Shown: positions 4,172-63,867 of the stretch, piece after piece | Numbering within the stretch: position 1 is the stretch's first letter | Layout: each line of letters begins with the position of its first letter | Origin: Candidatus Spongiisociaceae bacterium | GTDB taxonomy: Bacteria > Actinomycetota > Acidimicrobiia > Spongiisociales > Spongiisociaceae | Assembly (NCBI GenBank): GCA_965262915.1 | Contig: OZ253564.1 | Location: 1,536,001-1,600,000 of the forward strand | Length of the DNA: 64,000 nucleotides | Direction of reading: 5' to 3' | Translations under genes and position numbers: made by a program | Notes under the pieces: generated by a model | Database searches by the model: none | What the model saw: the letters and a program-made list of their open reading frames with translations, nothing else | Told to the model about the DNA's origin: nothing

Positions 4172-5659
4172 ATGGATGAGCTGAGGCCCTCTCCCGTGAA
4201 GAAGCCGGAGATCATCCCGACCGGACTCGACTACGTGCCGTCCCGCGAGTCCACCGATGTGGTCTCCATGGAGGAGAGCTACGAGCTGTGGATCGACGGG
4301 AGACCGTCCGAGCCTGCCACCAACCGGTACTTGCCCACGGTCAATCCGGCTACCGAGGAGACCCTCAGCCGGGTGGCGGAAGCCGGCTCGGAGGACGTGG
4401 ACCGGGCGGTGACGGCAGCCCGCAGCGCCTACACCGGCGTCTGGGGAAGGTTGGACGGCGCGGAGAGATCGAAGTACCTCTACCGCCTGGCCAGGATGCT
4501 CCAGGAGCGGTCCCGCGAGTTCGCGGTGCTGGAGACGCTCGACGGGGGCAAACCCATCAAGGAGTCGCGGGATGTCGATCTCCCCCTCGCGGCGGCCCAT
4601 TTCTTCTACTACGCCGGGTGGGCGGACAAGCTGGAGTACGCCTTTCCCGTTCTGGACACCCGGCCGCTGGGAGTCGTGGGGCAGGTGATCCCCTGGAACT
4701 TCCCGATGCTGATGCTGGCCTGGAAGGTGGCGCCCGCCCTGGCCACCGGCAACACGGTGGTGCTCAAGCCGGCCGAGACCACCCCGCTGAGCGCGCTTGC
4801 CTTCGCCCGCCTCGCGGCCGAGGCGGGACTCCCCGCGGGTGTCCTGAACGTCGTCACCGGGAACGGCCGAACCGGAGCGGAGGTGGTGGCCCATCCCGGT
4901 GTCGACAAGGTGGCCTTCACCGGCTCCACGGAGGTGGGCAAGCTCATCCAGAAGCGGCTGGCCGGAACGGGCAGGAGGCTGACCCTGGAACTCGGCGGCA
5001 AGGCGCCCCACGTCATCTTCGACGACGCTCCCCTCGACCAGGCGATCGAAGGGGTCGTAAACGGTATCTTCTTCAACCAGGGCCACGTGTGCTGCGCGGG
5101 TAGCCGCCTGCTGGTCCAGGAGTCGATCTACGACACCTTGATGGACAAGCTCAAGGTGAGGCTGGCCACCCTCCGGGTGGGCGATCCGCTCGACAAGAAC
5201 ACCGATGTGGGAGCGATCAACAGCAGGGCGCAGCTCGACAGGATCACCGAACTGGTGGATGCCGGACTGGCCGAGGGCGCCGAGATGTACCAGCCGCCCT
5301 GTGCCCTTCCCGAGCGCGGTTACTGGTTCGCTCCCACCCTGTTCATGGGCGTGTCGCAGAGCCACCGGGTCGCGCAGGAGGAGATCTTCGGTCCGGTACT
5401 GTCGATCATGACCTTCCGCACGCCCGCCGAAGCGGTGGAGAAGGCCAACAACACGCCCTACGGACTGTCCGCCGGGGTGTGGACCAGCAAGGGCTCCCGC
5501 ATCCTGTGGATGGCCGACCGGCTCAAGGCAGGTGTGGTGTGGGCCAACACATACAACAAGTTCGACCCGGCCTCCCCGTTCGGCGGCTACCGGGAGTCGG
5601 GGTTCGGCCGGGAGGGTGGTCGCCATGGCCTGCTTCCCTACCTGAGGGGTGGCGCGTGA
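4172..5659 (+). CDS. Aldehyde dehydrogenase
   Basis: IPWNFP, FTGSTEVG, LELGGK, catalytic GHVCCAGSR, EEIFGP. Confidence 0.95.
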   Translation: MDELRPSPVKKPEIIPTGLDYVPSRESTDVVSMEESYELWIDGRPSEPATNRYLPTVNPATEETLSRVAEAGSEDVDRAVTAARSAYTGVWGRLDGAERSKYLYRLARMLQERSREFAVLETLDGGKPIKESRDVDLPLAAAHFFYYAGWADKLEYAFPVLDTRPLGVVGQVIPWNFPMLMLAWKVAPALATGNTVVLKPAETTPLSALAFARLAAEAGLPAGVLNVVTGNGRTGAEVVAHPGVDKVAFTGSTEVGKLIQKRLAGTGRRLTLELGGKAPHVIFDDAPLDQAIEGVVNGIFFNQGHVCCAGSRLLVQESIYDTLMDKLKVRLATLRVGDPLDKNTDVGAINSRAQLDRITELVDAGLAEGAEMYQPPCALPERGYWFAPTLFMGVSQSHRVAQEEIFGPVLSIMTFRTPAEAVEKANNTPYGLSAGVWTSKGSRILWMADRLKAGVVWANTYNKFDPASPFGGYRESGFGREGGRHGLLPYLRGGA

Positions 5660-6525
5660 GCAGGATCGAGGTGCGCAAGACCTACAAGATGTACGTCGAT
5701 GGGGACTTTCCCCGATCCGAGTCGGGCCGCACCTACCCGGCTCTCGACCACCGGGGGGAGGTCATCGCCCGGGTGGCGGCCGGAACCCGCAAGGACCTTC
5801 GCCATGCCGTCCGATGTGCCCGCAAGGCGCAGGCCGGATGGGCCGGCCGGAGTGGATACAACCGGGGCCAGATCCTCTACCGGATCGCCGAGATGGTCGA
5901 GGACCGGGCACCCACCTTCGCAGCCCACATCGCGGCCACCGGAGTCGGCGGCGGCCGCGCCCGCCGGGAGGTGGCCCGAGCCGTGGACCGTCTCGTCTGG
6001 TACGCCGGTTGGGCCGACAAGTACCAGCAGGTGATCGGCAACCTGAACCCGGTCTCAGGGCCCTTCTTCAACATCTCGACGCCGGAACCGACCGGCGTCG
6101 TAGGGGTGGTCGCCCCCGAGGAGCCCGCCATGTTGGGTCTCGTCTCCCGGCTAGCTCCCGTCATCGTGTCGGGCAACACCGCGGTGGTGCTGGCTTCGGA
6201 GCGCTGGCCGGTACCCGCCATCTCGTTTGCCGAAGCGATGGCCACCGCCGACGTTCCCGGAGGGGTCGTAAACGTGCTGACCGGTCCCAAATCGGGAATG
6301 ATCCCCTTCCTTGCCTCCCACCTCGATGTCAATGCCGTCGACGCGTACGGGGCCGATCCGGGGATGATGGCCGAGTTGGAGGAAGCGGCGGCGGGCGGCG
6401 TGAAGCGGGTGGTGCGCCCGCCGGAGGGCCGGGTCGACTGGACCGACAACGGGACCGCTCAGAGTCTCTACTTCATCTCCGCCTTCACCGAGATCAAGAC
6501 AGTCTGGCACCCCAAAGGCCTTTGA
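5656..6525 (+). CDS. Short aldehyde dehydrogenase-like protein (NAD-binding half only)
   Basis: GTGA overlap with the upstream ALDH; WYAGWADK, SGNTAVV, EIKTVWHP; no LELGG or catalytic Cys segment. Confidence 0.85.
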   Translation: MSRIEVRKTYKMYVDGDFPRSESGRTYPALDHRGEVIARVAAGTRKDLRHAVRCARKAQAGWAGRSGYNRGQILYRIAEMVEDRAPTFAAHIAATGVGGGRARREVARAVDRLVWYAGWADKYQQVIGNLNPVSGPFFNISTPEPTGVVGVVAPEEPAMLGLVSRLAPVIVSGNTAVVLASERWPVPAISFAEAMATADVPGGVVNVLTGPKSGMIPFLASHLDVNAVDAYGADPGMMAELEEAAAGGVKRVVRPPEGRVDWTDNGTAQSLYFISAFTEIKTVWHPKGL

Positions 6526-58937: not shown

Positions 58938-59705
58938 ATGGCTCAACTACAACTACGTCCGCACAGCGTCGGTGACATAATCGACGCGTCGTTCACCGTC
59001 TATCGCAAACGCTTCGGCCCGATGATCGGCATCGCCTTGATGCTGGTCTTCATCCCGTTCGTCGTAGGCGTCATCGGGGGGTGCACGATCACAGAACTGC
59101 AGACATCGTGCGACACGGCCATAGGTTGGATCGGTCAGATCGCGTCCCAGATCGGGATGGTCATCGCTGCTGCCGCCGCCATGCCGGTGGCTGCCGAGGC
59201 GTATGTCGGCACATCCGCCGACTGGAGACCATCCGCTGCGGCTGGGCTCCGGAGGATCATCCCGATCGTCGTCGCGACCGTGGTTGTAACCGTTGCTGTC
59301 GCTATCGGCTTCGTATTGGTGCTGGTACCCGGGATCTTCCTGGCTGTCTCGTTCGCCGTGTTCACTCCCGTTCTGATGATCGAGAGGGTCGGTCCGATGG
59401 AGAGCCTCGGGCGGTCCTGGCGCTTGGTCACCGGGGAACGTTGGCGCCTGTTCGGTGCGGGGCTGTCCATGATCATCATCTCGGTCATCGTGTTGGGGAT
59501 CATCGGCTTCGTTCTGTATCTCGTATTGTCGGGGCTTGGCGGGCTCAGTGAAGGGGATGCGTCCTACTACACCCAGCAGATCGTCACTCTCCTGAGCATC
59601 CCGCTCAGCGCCGCGGTCGGGGCGGTACTGTACGTAGACCTGCGGGTACGGAAGGAAAACCTCGACGTTGAGGGGCTGAGTTCCCTGCTGGCCCGCAGAG
59701 ACTGA
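58938..59705 (+). CDS. Multi-pass membrane protein; paralog of 13525..14313
   Basis: MAQLQLRP..., RSWRL, YVDLRVRKE. Confidence 0.8.
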   Translation: MAQLQLRPHSVGDIIDASFTVYRKRFGPMIGIALMLVFIPFVVGVIGGCTITELQTSCDTAIGWIGQIASQIGMVIAAAAAMPVAAEAYVGTSADWRPSAAAGLRRIIPIVVATVVVTVAVAIGFVLVLVPGIFLAVSFAVFTPVLMIERVGPMESLGRSWRLVTGERWRLFGAGLSMIIISVIVLGIIGFVLYLVLSGLGGLSEGDASYYTQQIVTLLSIPLSAAVGAVLYVDLRVRKENLDVEGLSSLLARRD

Positions 59706-59954
59706 TCGGTACGATCCGAACCACAACTGGAAACGATCCGAGCCACCGTATGCTCCGTCCGGGGGTACTCGACAACGTGGACCCCCACGGGCGAGATCAG
59801 AGGCCTACAGTTGACCGATGCCCAGCCCCATTGCCTCCGCGCTGGCGTAGTATCCCATCGTGCGACTCCCCACTGGTTGAGTTCCCCGATCACACCAGTG
59901 ATCCCGTCAGCGGTTTCAATCGGAACCAACGGCCGGCGCTGTCCAACAAGGGCG

Positions 59955-59960
59955 TAGAAT
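59955..59960 (+). promoter_or_regulatory. -10 box of the tRNA-Glu promoter
   Basis: TAGAAT 14 nt upstream of the tRNA 5' end. Confidence 0.55.
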
Positions 59961-59974
59961 CGCCTCACAACGTA

Positions 59975-60048
59975 GGCCCCGTCGTCCAGCCGGCCTAGGA
60001 CGCCGGCCTTTCAAGCCGGAAACGCGGGTTCGAATCCCGTCGGGGCCA
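59975..60048 (+). tRNA. tRNA-Glu(TTC)
   Basis: Acceptor GGCCCCG/CGGGGCC, anticodon arm CCGGC-CT TTC AA-GCCGG, T arm GCGGG-TTCGAAT-CCCGT; CCA not encoded. Confidence 0.97.
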
Positions 60049-60261
60049 CGGCGGGATGTTCGCCACCAATGGGCTGTGATGTTCGCCACTTAGCCGCTGA
60101 GGGGGTTGCAGGCACCGGTTTTGGGGTGTTCGGGCGGTGCCGGGTGGTGGTTCAGCTGGTTTCGCGGTGGGGTGGGATGGTTTTGCCGGCCCGGGGTGGG
60201 GGTGGGTGATGTTCGGGACGTGGCGGGTCGGACCCTTCCGGGTTGCCGCGTCGTGGTGCCC

Positions 60262-60519
60262 CTAGCGAGCGGGGACTGTCACCTGCCCTACTACCTGACC
60301 GTTGAACGTCTGCGCGACTGTGACATGATCCGGCAGCGACGGGTCTAGGCGGACGATGAAGCCGCCTTCGAGGGCGTACCCGTCGGGGAGTCGTGCTGCC
60401 AAGGCGTCAAGCTCCGCCATAATTGCTTCGTCGTGTGCCCCCGCTGCGGCTTCGTCGGACAACCGCGACAAAGCGGCTTCCATCTCTTCCCAGGTTTCTA
60501 CGTGTTCACGGGTAGCCAT
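60262..60519 (-). CDS. Putative antitoxin of unrecognised family (cassette 1)
   Basis: Acidic N-half; LPDGY..DP.LPDH..NG..VP motif shared with 61448..61717; own TACGAT-N6-ATG promoter. Confidence 0.7.
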   Translation of the reverse strand: MATREHVETWEEMEAALSRLSDEAAAGAHDEAIMAELDALAARLPDGYALEGGFIVRLDPSLPDHVTVAQTFNGQVVGQVTVPAR

Positions 60520-60569
60520 CCCCGAATCGTAACACCGGCGGCGGCTCCGGGGTTGCTGTGGTTCGCTCA

Positions 60570-60812
60570 CTAGCGTAGATATCGTCGGTCCGTCCGGTCT
60601 GATATGACATGGGCGTGGTAGACAACCAATTCGCTGCCACGCCATTCGGCAAGAACCATGGCTGGGCCTTGAGATGTCGGTCCGACATAGCGTATTCCGC
60701 TCTCGCCCCGTCGGGTGGTTATGGCCGCATAGCCGAATGGGTGGTCAATAGCCCACTGGATGTCACCCTGGGTCAGTCCCTGCCTGAACGCGGATTGTAG
60801 GTAACGGGCCAT
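60570..60812 (-). CDS. Putative BrnT/RelE-fold toxin (cassette 1)
   Basis: SAFRQGLTQGDIQWAIDHP...YVGP...VVYHAH, resembling SA.KHG...DI...G...VIHA toxins. Confidence 0.6.
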   Translation of the reverse strand: MARYLQSAFRQGLTQGDIQWAIDHPFGYAAITTRRGESGIRYVGPTSQGPAMVLAEWRGSELVVYHAHVISDRTDRRYLR

Positions 60813-61447
60813 GTGATAAGGGGAAGATTACCCGCACGTGCGGGGGGCTGCGCCCGCGGCTAGCGGGGTCGGAGACGGTCGGATCGGGGGGGCGTTCACG
60901 GACCAGGTCGCGGACGGCGACTGTGGCTGCGGTTGGATGGCGCAGGCCCCTGCGGGAATGTGGAAGTCCCCCCCACTGTTAATGTGGAAGTCCCCGTGGG
61001 AGTGGTCGTATCACCGCAGGTCAGGGATGGTGGCGAACATCCCTCAGAGGGATGTTCGCCACTAATGGGCTGTGATGTTCGCCACTTAGGCGCTGAGGGG
61101 GTTGCAGGCACCGGTTTTGGGGTGTTCGGGCGGTGCCGGGTGGTGGTTCAGCTGGTTTCGCGGTGGGGTGGGATGGTTTTGGCGGCCCGGGGTGGGGGTG
61201 GGTGATGTTCGGGACGTGGCGGGTCGGACCCTTCCGGGTTGCCGCGTCGTGGGGGGTTAGCCTGCCTGGGGTGGTCCCCTGCTGTGCTGGTTCGGGTTGT
61301 GTTCCGCTGGCAGCGGCGACTGTTCGACGGTTGCCTCGGTGATGTGTGGGGTGTGTTCGGGTGTACTGGTGGGGTCGGGCCGGGCGTGGGTGTCAGGCTA
61401 TGCGGCTTGGGTTGATCCGTCCTGAGAGACGATAAGGGTCGGGGCTG

Positions 61448-61717
61448 CTACCGGCGGACGGGAACCCTGCACATACCGGAGGGGACACCGTTCACAAGAG
61501 CGGGTATGTAAAAATGGTCGGGCAGGCCCGGGTCGGTGCGTATCACATGGTTGTGTTCGTCGAGTACGTACCCGTCGGGTAGTTGGCTGGCTAGATATTC
61601 GATGACGTCCACCCCATGGTCGAACTCGCCCGCTTCAGCGGCCCGGGCCAGCTCCCGGTACCGCTCCTCCTCTTCTTCTTCGCTCAGGGTATCGGCCGCG
61701 TGTGATGTCATCGTCAT
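61448..61717 (-). CDS. Putative antitoxin of unrecognised family (cassette 2)
   Basis: Acidic N-half (EEEEEE); LPDGY..DP.LPDH..NG..VP; own TATGCT-N7-ATG promoter. Confidence 0.7.
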   Translation of the reverse strand: MTMTSHAADTLSEEEEEERYRELARAAEAGEFDHGVDVIEYLASQLPDGYVLDEHNHVIRTDPGLPDHFYIPALVNGVPSGMCRVPVRR

Positions 61718-61784
61718 GCGGCGCAGCATACCCCATCCGATACGCGAAAGGGTCTCCCCGCCCCCCCGGGGGACGGATAGCGGA

Positions 61785-62006
61785 CTAGTACCGTCTGCAT
61801 ATATCTGCGTGGAACACGACAATGTCCCCGCGATGGTCATACTCATAGAGCACTTCGATCAAGTCCATGTTCGACGCGAACCCGACTTTCGATATCACCA
61901 GCTGACTTCCCCTAAGTTCCGAAACGGAGATGGGGCTGTCTAGTACCCTTTCGATGTCCCAGCGTGTGTAACCGTGCTTGAACGCCGAGTTCTTATAGCG
62001 GACCAT
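61785..62006 (-). CDS. Putative BrnT/RelE-fold toxin (cassette 2)
   Basis: SAFKHGYTRWDIERVLDSP...VGF...IEV...VVFHAD; homologous to 60570..60812. Confidence 0.65.
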   Translation of the reverse strand: MVRYKNSAFKHGYTRWDIERVLDSPISVSELRGSQLVISKVGFASNMDLIEVLYEYDHRGDIVVFHADICRRY

Positions 62007-62469
62007 GCTCACCTTCGTCCCACCGGACACCAACTCGGTCGTCTCCAGACGACATCCAGGCTCGTAACAGATTAGGGACCACGGTGGAACCGGTCCAGAC
62101 ATGGTCGGGCACATACTGGACCAGGGGTTCCGTCAGAACCCGCGGGTGGATGGCGCAGGCCCCTGCGGGAATATGGAAGTCCCCCCACTGATAATGTGGA
62201 AGTCCCCATGGGAATGGTCGTATCACCGCAGGTCAGGGATGGTGGCGAACATCCCACGGCGGGGTCTTCGCGTGTTGGTGGGTGTCGGGTTCGCGGGTTA
62301 GGGGGTTCGGTCGGGCTTTTGGCTGGTTTGGGGGGTTTTTGGGGGTCTGATGGGGTGTGTGCGGTGCTGCGGGGTGCCGGTTATGGGTGTTGGTGGTGTT
62401 GGCGGCTGGTTGTGGACGCGTTTGGTTCGATGGGTGGGTCCCGTCGATGGGGGATGGGTCGGGGTTGGT

Positions 62470-62775
62470 TTATGGGGGTGCCCGGCTGGGTGTGGGATTG
62501 GTCGGGTGTGGGGTTGGTGTGGCTGATGCGGTGGTGTTGGGGGTTGTCTGGTCGCGGTGGGCCGGGGTGGTGTGGTTCCGGTTCTTGGGGCGGCAGGCGC
62601 GTCGGGTGTGTTTGAGGTTGTGGATGACGGCGGCCATGGGCGCGGCGAGTGTGTGAGCAGCGAGACCGAACGCGCGGCAGGATGCTCTGTTGAAGCTGCC
62701 GTCGTCTTTGATCATGCCGTTGACGCCTTCGACGGGGTTACGTCCGGCGTAGAACGACCCGTCGGTTCCGTCCAC
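62470..62775 (-). pseudogene. 3' remnant of a DDE transposase (IS4-like YREK motif)
   Basis: YAGRNPVEGVNGMIK = Y-x2-R-x3-E-x6-K; HNL; T/P-rich tail ending RAPP. Confidence 0.7.
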
Positions 62776-63132
62776 TAACCTGTACCGCTACCCGCCTGTC
62801 GCCAAGATATGTCAGGTCATCGGGGCAACACCCTCCCGGTGGGTACCCCCAATACCGATGGAAACAAAAACCCGAACAACGCTGACAACAACAAGTAGGA
62901 GAACGACAATGCGGGGACGGCGTGTCACAGGGTATCGATACAGTTGATCGCGATCAGCAATCTGGGGAGGTCGGTCAGGTGTTTCGGAACTTCTGGAAGT
63001 GGTTCACCGGCTTATACCCGGCTACGGTAGTAGCCGTGCCTGCGTTGGCATTCGACAGTGTCCGTCTTGACATATGCAGTACTGCACGACACAAAACCGC
63101 TACTGGTGACATGCGACATATAGACTCACAGC

Positions 63133-63867
63133 ATGGCTGACCGCAGCGCTATCGAGTGGACGGATGCTACCTGGAACCCCGTGACAGGATGTTCCCAGAC
63201 GTCGCCGGGTTGTGACAATTGCTACGCGTTGACACTCGCTGTACGTCTGAAGGCCATGGGTAATCCACGGTACCAAGTAGACGGAGACCCGAAACGAAGC
63301 GGACCCGGCTTCGGACTCCAACTCCACCACGACCTACTGGACGTTCCCCACAGGTGGAAACGCCAGCGAACCATTTTCGTGAACTCGATGAGCGATCTCT
63401 TCCATCCAGACGTTCCCTTCGATTTCATTACTGAGGTGTTCACCGTCATGAACGAGACCCGACGGCATCGCTTCCAGATTCTGACCAAACGTTCCCACCG
63501 GATGGCACGAACTGCTGTAGACCTCGATTGGTCAGACAACATCTGGATGGGGGTCAGCGTCGAGAATCGACGTTACACGTTTCGTATTGACCACCTGAGA
63601 GAAGTTCAAAGCCATATCCGATTCCTATCTCTCGAACCTCTAATCGGGCCGCTTCCCGCTCTTGACCTGACCGGGATACATTGGGTAATCGTAGGTGGTG
63701 AGAGCGGGTATAAGGCACGGCCTATTGATCCTGCTTGGGTTCGCGACATCCGTGACCAGTGTGCGGACGCTTCAGTACCGTTCTTCTTCAAACAGTGGGG
63801 GGGCCGTACATCTAAGGCTGGCGGTCGACTGCTTGACGACCGTACGTTTGACGAGATGCCTGTTTAG
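63133..63867 (+). CDS. Phage Gp37/Gp68 family (DUF5131) three-Cys protein
   Basis: IEWTDATWNPVTGC...SPGCDNCYA, FVNSMSDLFH, LTKR, WVIVGGESG, FFKQWGG. Confidence 0.93.
   Translation: MADRSAIEWTDATWNPVTGCSQTSPGCDNCYALTLAVRLKAMGNPRYQVDGDPKRSGPGFGLQLHHDLLDVPHRWKRQRTIFVNSMSDLFHPDVPFDFITEVFTVMNETRRHRFQILTKRSHRMARTAVDLDWSDNIWMGVSVENRRYTFRIDHLREVQSHIRFLSLEPLIGPLPALDLTGIHWVIVGGESGYKARPIDPAWVRDIRDQCADASVPFFFKQWGGRTSKAGGRLLDDRTFDEMPV

Follow-up and report, generated by a model that had tools for sequence, protein, structure and literature searches.

A stretch of 64,000 nt from contig OZ253564.1 (positions 1,536,001–1,600,000 of assembly GCA_965262915.1, Candidatus Spongiisociaceae bacterium), hereafter the window, contains two homologous pairs of small genes, designated here A and B, with all four genes on the minus strand and downstream of a tRNA-Glu gene. 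Based on sequence comparisons, structural models and analogy with known systems, we favor the view that each pair is probably a toxin-first, type II-like toxin-antitoxin (TA) system, in which A would be an RNase of the RelS/BrnT type and B would belong to a new antitoxin family, and that a mobile insertion cassette (MIC) carries the pair as its only cargo. The four genes are the following:

60812–60570, minus strand: A1, 80 aa, predicted BrnT/RelS-like toxin fold, with Gln11 in place of the catalytic His.
60519–60262, minus strand: B1, 85 aa, acidic putative antitoxin, isoelectric point (pI) 4.36.
62006–61785, minus strand: A2, 73 aa, putative BrnT/RelS-like toxin that retains K10-H11 and the C-terminal His.
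61717–61448, minus strand: B2, 89 aa, acidic putative antitoxin, pI 4.60.

This two-gene layout, with lengths of 73–80 aa for the first product and 85–89 aa for the second, is as it had been given in a preliminary description of the window, and the coordinates and strand were found to be correct. A1 and A2 are 36% identical (E 2e-9), and B1 and B2 are 40% identical (E 7e-14). For comparison we used ten loci containing B: the two from the window and eight others, designated L001 to L008, of which L007 and L008 are near-identical contigs. The list of open reading frames gives longer upstream starts for B1 (to 60645), B2, and A2, and we adopted the shorter starts because they are common to the homologs. 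The start of B1 is thus the ATG at 60519; compared to the copy in L001, the 50-nt spacer between A and B contains five substitutions and the whole of B1 only two and, judged from this comparison, the DNA upstream of the B1 ATG evolves as non-coding. The motifs previously quoted for both products are genuine features of their families, as seen in the family alignments: S7, A8, D17, I18, P25, H66, and A67 for A, and LP.GY, R57, and DP.LP for B.

Neither A1 nor A2 has significant matches in Pfam, NCBIfam, PHROGs or PADLOC. A profile built from eight A sequences retrieved 59 relatives among 926 candidates, none of them with a Pfam domain, only one of them named (as "hypothetical protein") and several of them from one genome. 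The A alignment comprised 53 sequences, seven from the window and the loci plus 46 of the 59 matches, after 13 short or weak ones were dropped; a Pfam search with the 53 members gave only sub-threshold matches, to DUF2963 (7/53) and DUF4258 (4/53, best E 0.039). The AlphaFold2 model obtained with this alignment has a mean predicted local distance difference test score (pLDDT) of 89 and a predicted template modeling score (pTM) of 0.78. Its top Foldseek match in the PDB is the toxin of a Salmonella TA system (7vd7_A; probability 1.00, template modeling (TM) score 0.72, E 1.9e-3), followed by BrnT from Brucella (3u97; probability 1.00, TM score 0.56, E 3.1e-2), with RelE and HigB2 toxins ranking lower. 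The confident model and the Foldseek run, with a best E of 1.9e-3, hence bear out the BrnT/RelE-type fold that had been anticipated for A.

At the sequence level, the only notable match of the A profile among PDB sequences is 9sdc_C, annotated as "Toxin" and corresponding to RelS (E 0.0012, 22 bits, residues 3–68). Additionally, hhalign aligned the A family to gp38 of Gordonia phage DumpsterDude, a "BrnT-like toxin," with 93% probability (E 3.5e-7), and A2 alone weakly matches a "BrnT-like toxin" from a Gordonia phage. These sequence comparisons support that A is distantly homologous to characterized or annotated BrnT-like toxins. The K/R-H dyad near the N-terminus, together with a His near the C-terminus, is retained in 42 of the 53 members of the family, and the C-terminal His in 52/53. 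A2 keeps K10, H11 and the C-terminal His, as well as every other conserved residue; A1 has R10, Q11 and H66, whereas the 98% identical copy from L001 has H11. The A1 copy, lacking the first His, may therefore be attenuated.

The product of B is acidic throughout, with a charge of −8 to −10 in its N-terminal half. A word-based search with B1 found 15 relatives, nine of them showing 80–99% identity and covering 98% or more of the query, and a B profile compared to 1.84 billion representative sequences retrieved 41 clusters at E <= 1e-3, 22 of them at E <= 1e-10. From these matches we obtained an alignment of 37 sequences, after dropping those that were tandem, frameshift-tailed, fragmentary or long and repetitive. 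Some members of the family, P0081, P0083, and P0088 among them, have two tandem B domains separated by a conserved linker of the ERYETRTR type, which hints that the B domain works as a dimer. In the predicted structure (pLDDT 79) there are two helices, at residues 10–25 and 30–43, followed by a four-stranded beta domain that includes the LPDGY and DPxLPDH motifs.

B has no relative among known families or folds in any of the searches done. It belongs to no Pfam, NCBIfam or PADLOC family and has no significant match in PHROGs, and a Pfam search with the 37 members produced only noise (DUF6304 in 8/37, at E of at least 0.1); the B profile gave 22 matches to PDB sequences up to E = 10, none of them usable; the predicted fold had no match in the PDB (best Foldseek E 2.3, probability 0.06) nor among the viral predicted folds in BFVD; and a search of the ESM Atlas with B1 and B2 gave nothing usable. 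Likewise, hhalign gave a probability of 0.16% for the B family against the ribbon-helix-helix (RHH) partner of the phage BrnT-like toxin. With tblastn, A2 had no match in plasmids, and B2 had none in plasmids or in phages. Family, profile and fold searches thus agree with the earlier observation that the partner shows no RHH, helix-turn-helix (HTH) or AbrB pattern, and extend it to the other families and folds searched. In a limited literature search we found no paper describing the B family, its predicted fold or an inverted-repeat cassette carrying only a TA pair, and all three appear to be new.

A and B are linked. In seven of the ten loci A is located directly upstream of B and on the same strand, so that the pair consists of two small, adjacent and co-oriented genes. 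In the remaining three, A is deleted (L003) or the two genes are convergent (L005 and L006). The identities of A and B co-vary among loci (r = 0.93, from 21 locus pairs that are not independent). The ratio of non-synonymous to synonymous substitution rates (dN/dS) is 0.17–0.46 for A (three pairs; a fourth was saturated) and 0–0.25 for B (six pairs), and the two substitutions that separate B1 from its homolog in L001 are both synonymous. Comparison of the window with the copy in L001 also revealed that the coding parts are much more conserved than the spacer and the arms of the cassette. As estimated from these alignments, both A and B are under purifying selection.

One of the closest known systems is RelS-RelI (Rv2663-Rv2664) from Mycobacterium tuberculosis (PDB 9SDC). 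The published account describes RelS as a BrnT-like RNase of the RelE superfamily, of 77–78 aa, that cuts 16S rRNA within the anti-Shine-Dalgarno sequence and for which K9, H10, and H64 are essential, and places the acidic helix of RelI over the active face of RelS (PMC13284704). Both systems are toxin-first and have toxins of similar size (77–78 aa against 73–80 aa for A), which share the signature SA.KHG...HA, with equivalents of K9, H10, and H64 in A2 and in most of the A family but not all of them in A1; likewise, RelI and B are similar in size, have an acidic N-terminal helix and belong to no classical antitoxin family. However, RelI is all-helical and HTH/ClpC2-like, whereas B is predicted to have two helices plus a four-stranded beta domain, and RelI is not one of the 22 PDB sequences matched by the B profile (E <= 10). 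Moreover, R69 of RelS lies in a C-terminal helix region that is missing from most A proteins, the A-B pair occurs in an Acidimicrobiia-like symbiont and it rides on a mobile cassette.

BrnT-BrnA from Brucella abortus (3U97) also shares features with the A-B pair. BrnT, the second-best fold match of A, has a K-H dyad formed by K16 and H17 (PMC13284704). The system is toxin-first as well, and its antitoxin combines N-terminal helices with a C-terminal domain of another kind. On the other hand, A matches no Pfam toxin model (A1 and A2 at E <= 10, and the 53 members at E <= 1), including that of the BrnT family, and B lacks an RHH. The gp38/gp37 pair of DumpsterDude also has a toxin homologous to the A family and is toxin-first, but the toxin is paired there with a 136-aa RHH_1 protein unrelated to B, and the carrier is a phage instead of a cassette with terminal inverted repeats (TIRs). 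The designation of new TA type, proposed in the preliminary description, is too strong: this toxin branch and the swapping of antitoxin partners are already known, and in the A-B pair a toxin from an established clade is joined by a partner from a new family, as also in RelS-RelI according to its description (PMC13284704).

By analogy with RelS, A would be a small endoribonuclease from the BrnT/RelS branch of the RelE superfamily that stops translation by cutting RNA, possibly at the 3′ end of 16S rRNA, using its K/R-H dyad near the N-terminus and the His near the C-terminus. B would neutralize this toxicity by binding, its acidic N-terminal helices covering the basic active face of A as RelI does on RelS, while its four-stranded beta domain probably provides stability or dimerization; an excess of B could come from a leaderless mRNA transcribed from the −10 element of this gene. 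The cassette, in turn, has to rely on a DDE transposase acting in trans for its movement, and the A-B pair would then favor its retention through addiction.

Both pairs are included in cassettes that abut head to tail beside the tRNA gene, with the following organization:

59975–60049, plus strand: tRNA-Glu (UUC), detected by ARAGORN and by Rfam (tRNA, 67.9 bits); the array begins a few bases past its 3′ end.
60047–60053, plus strand: CACGGCG, 7 bp, first copy of a putative target-site duplication, overlapping the end of tRNA-Glu; found in the sequence and in the inverted-repeat list.
60054–61042, minus strand: cassette 1, 989 nt, with 13-nt TIRs GGATGTTCGCCAC at both ends and A1 plus B1 as cargo; without transposase.
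60054–60261, minus strand: right (B-side) arm of cassette 1, whose coding strand is rich in C; it has two GTGGCGAACATC repeats, one terminal and one inner, at a distance of 23 nt.
60929–61042, minus strand: left (A-side) arm of cassette 1, with the TIR at 61030–61042 and two GGGGACTTCCACAT repeats at 60958–60971 and 60982–60995.
61043–61049, plus strand: CTCAGAG, 7-bp spacer at the junction where cassette 1 abuts cassette 2, within a perfect 13-7-13 palindrome.
61050–62254, minus strand: cassette 2, 1205 nt, with arms as in cassette 1 and a divergent cargo, A2 plus B2.
62255–62261, plus strand: CACGGCG, 7 bp, second copy; found in the sequence and in the inverted-repeat list.
62262–62775, minus strand: putative third, diverged element, a remnant in which only the final ~50 codons of a DDE transposase gene are left (62470–62775), followed by a C-rich tail.

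The repeat GATGTTCGCCAC is present at all four cassette ends and in two inner copies, and its 12-mer occurs six times in the window against 0.56 expected. The B-side arms (204 nt) are 98.5% identical between the cassettes, and each contains one more copy of the repeat further inward. The A-side arms, of about 115 nt, gave a blastn alignment between cassettes of 131 nt with 91.6% identity and contain two GGGGACTTCCAYAT repeats each, which occur four times in the window against 0.05 expected. The earlier observation of near-identical arms around a divergent cargo is therefore accurate, although their nature as transposon ends had not been recognized. The sole credible genes within the cassettes are A and B, and neither cassette contains a transposase. 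The two-cassette array is flanked by exact copies of CACGGCG, but the inner junction is different (CTCAGAG). An interpretation of the 13-7-13 junctions as attP/attB sites of a tyrosine recombinase was discarded, because the 7-bp spacer inside the array is not the same as those at its outer ends, and the insertion site in L001 is unlike the repeat.

Cassette 1 also occurs in a related genome, of Candidatus Spongiisocius sp. (L001), as a 995-nt unit with 94.9% identity and with unrelated flanks. Since the flanks are wholly different, the cassettes are mobile, non-autonomous elements. The copy in L001 splits a PIN-domain gene, whose downstream fragment corresponds to positions 61–118 of the PIN profile (E 0.001), and its 7-bp flanks agree at five of the seven positions. 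The disrupted gene (in the region 5214–6829 of L001) is VapC-like and has a small gene upstream, and thus one mobile TA cassette seemingly disrupted another toxin gene.

An example of a MIC is MIC231 from Bacillus cereus. In their published description, these elements consist of insertion sequence (IS) ends around passenger genes and have no transposase (PMC4133298). The cassettes from the window share with them the TIRs, the absence of a transposase, a putative short target duplication, the passenger genes and the existence of a copy at an unrelated site; they differ in that the cargo is only a TA pair, in their head-to-tail arrangement by a tRNA gene and, regarding the transposase, in that only a diverged DDE_Tnp_1_6 remnant (E 0.018) adjoins the array. 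From their sequence organization, we conclude that the cassettes are MICs with the A-B pair as their only cargo. The TA cassettes of chromosomal integrons are also small, promoter-poor units arranged in tandem, with shared recombination ends, and their TA systems are thought to stabilize the array. Here, however, the ends are 13-nt inverted repeats with a flanking 7-bp duplication, and the occurrence of one copy inside a disrupted PIN-domain gene fits transposition. Neither an attC-type site nor an integron integrase was seen, although no search was aimed at them.

The segment at 62262–62775 is read as a third, diverged and truncated element. The transposase remnant matches positions 77–123 of the 125 of Pfam DDE_Tnp_1_6, below the cut-off (E 0.018), and includes what we take to be a Y-2-R-3-E-6-K pattern. 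Its tail aligns with the right arms of the cassettes, including both GCGAA repeats, and has a degenerate version of the terminal repeat at its end, and the remnant may be related to the element that mobilizes the cassettes. Just past the array, at 63133–63867 (plus strand), there is a DUF5131 gene (phage Gp37/Gp68 family, E 8e-97), which suggests that the tRNA-Glu site heads a larger island running off the window.

Each B gene from the window is preceded by a −10-like hexamer, at the positions given in the preliminary description:

60531–60526, minus strand: TACGAT, ending 6 nt before the ATG of B1; possible leaderless start.
61730–61725, minus strand: TATGCT, ending 7 nt before the ATG of B2.

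TANNNT hexamers occur at 0.19% of the window positions and, at that spacing, before 22 of 1593 ATG triplets (1.4%); because they are this rare, their presence before both B genes exceeds chance. The hexamer is retained in L001, and L007 has TATCCT 9 nt upstream of B; no similar hexamer precedes B in L002, L003/L004 or L005/L006. A scan of the gene strand for two-hexamer (sigma-70-type) promoters found no promoter, and no intrinsic terminator was found either. Rfam identified only tRNA in 59500–63200, and the RNA fold of the right arm of cassette 1 is not unusual (z = −0.02). A2 is preceded by a Shine-Dalgarno-like element, GAAGGTGAG. The proposal of a toxin-first order with an additional antitoxin promoter has thus been upheld as to gene order and to the existence of a candidate antitoxin-specific −10 element, and it is plausible, from the position of the hexamers, that the B transcript is leaderless and starts from this candidate element.

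In L002 (5715) and L004 (5679), the A gene has ATA exactly where other copies have the start ATG. The frames are nevertheless intact in both, with a dN/dS of 0.17 at a dS of ~1, and the ATA may be a weak, non-canonical start that holds toxin synthesis low.

These signals also permit a more elaborate scheme, in which the pair would be a self-regulating circuit without a DNA-binding antitoxin, B would have a new antitoxin fold and the whole would constitute a minimal selfish cassette; we consider this scheme, taken as a whole, very unlikely. By cutting the anti-Shine-Dalgarno end of 16S rRNA, as RelS does, A would stop Shine-Dalgarno-dependent translation, including its own in view of the strong Shine-Dalgarno-like element of A2, and the leaderless B mRNA from its own −10 box would continue to be translated, restoring the balance. 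The two genes and the 13-nt inverted repeats would borrow a transposase and then enforce their own retention.

Several observations weigh against a functional TA system formed by a RelS/BrnT-type toxin and its antitoxin B. As for A, the only leads from curated libraries are a PHROG annotated as "toxin" (E 0.079) and DUF4258, in 4/53 members and with E of at least 0.039; its model has no Foldseek match at E <= 0.001, and its sequence match to RelS is borderline (E 0.0012). A1 has a Gln at the position of an essential His, which is occupied by N or Q in nine of the 53 members, and ATA replaces the ATG start of A in L002 and L004. When used as a single-sequence query, A1 found one homolog, compared to the 15 found by B1, and A may therefore often be absent or uncalled beside B1-like genes. 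L006 contains an intact A beside a frameshifted B, in convergent orientation, which is unexpected for an active toxin. As for B, the pTM of its model is low (0.47), and no DNA-binding family or fold was detected, so that classical autoregulation is unsupported. The RelS-RelI study, in what it says of the antitoxin, likewise presents no evidence of DNA binding by RelI (PMC13284704).

A different explanation is that the A-B pair is mainly an anti-phage abortive-infection module, with the same chemistry but released upon infection and selected for defense rather than for cassette retention. The array is in a tRNA-linked island and adjoins a DUF5131 (Gp37/Gp68) gene of phage type, related genomes contain several copies of the A family (five matches are apparently from one genome) and homologous BrnT-like toxins occur in Gordonia phages. 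Nevertheless, we deem this function unlikely: PADLOC has no model matching either A or B up to E = 10, no other defense genes were recognized in the cassettes and selfish retention explains the cassette context equally well.

Another possibility is that the pairs from the window are decaying relics, with A1 inactivated by H11Q, B kept by linkage or by some other role and no working TA system. Decay is indeed apparent in these sequences; that it is mostly on the toxin side counts in favor of the TA reading. In L003, A is reduced to its last ~12 codons, with B intact; L005 and L006 (6001–6510) have A and B convergent and the same 4-nt insertion after LPD in B, with A frameshifted in L005 and intact in L006; and A1 has Q11 instead of the H found in the 98% identical copy from L001. 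Additionally, the adjoining transposase is only a remnant. However, A2 preserves all the conserved residues and a Shine-Dalgarno-like element, dN/dS is well below 1 for both A and B, including the comparison of cassette 2 to L007, and both B genes are intact, and we thus regard a complete loss of function as quite unlikely. A putative C-terminus of the B from L005 and L006, located 5 kb away by a weak tblastn match, was discarded, as the true one is in place, in another frame after the 4-nt insertion.

Finally, A and B could serve the cassette itself as accessory factors instead of being a toxin and its antitoxin, for example as proteins that bind the ends or regulate transposition, but we consider this highly improbable. 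In its favor, no other genes lie in a unit bounded by inverted repeats and with internal repeated sites, the cargo varies between cassettes with common arms, and TA-like pairs have reportedly been proposed to be an integral part of transposition modules of the Tn3 family. Against it, A has the RelE/BrnT RNase fold with conserved catalytic residues, the strong acidity of B is unfavorable for DNA binding and the pairs from L002, L004, and L007 lack these arms and TIRs, so that the A-B pair exists independently of this transposon.

If the A-B pair is a mobile TA system as we favor, the known partners of RelE-superfamily toxins would gain in B a new antitoxin family, probably with a new fold, and the recently described RelS/BrnT-like branch would extend beyond the Actinomycetes and their phages into sponge-associated Acidimicrobiia. 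Likewise, it would document transposase-less cassettes with a TA pair as their only cargo, which would be a clean natural case for asking whether TA pairs exist to hold mobile DNA in place. The possible pairing of a toxin that cuts the anti-Shine-Dalgarno sequence with a leaderless antitoxin mRNA is directly testable.

Outside of the window, no TIRs were found around the A-B pairs of L002, L004, L006, and L007. In L003 and L004 (~5500–6360), another A-B lineage is located between a dCTP-deaminase-like gene, recognized by eye, and the 3′ end of a tRNA-Gly(CCC) gene. L007 has a fragment of the HTH of an IS3-type transposase (HTH_Tnp_1, E 0.0066) at 5247–5489, upstream of the A-B pair, and the DNA following B in this locus resembles positions 62480–62662 of the window, within the transposase remnant.

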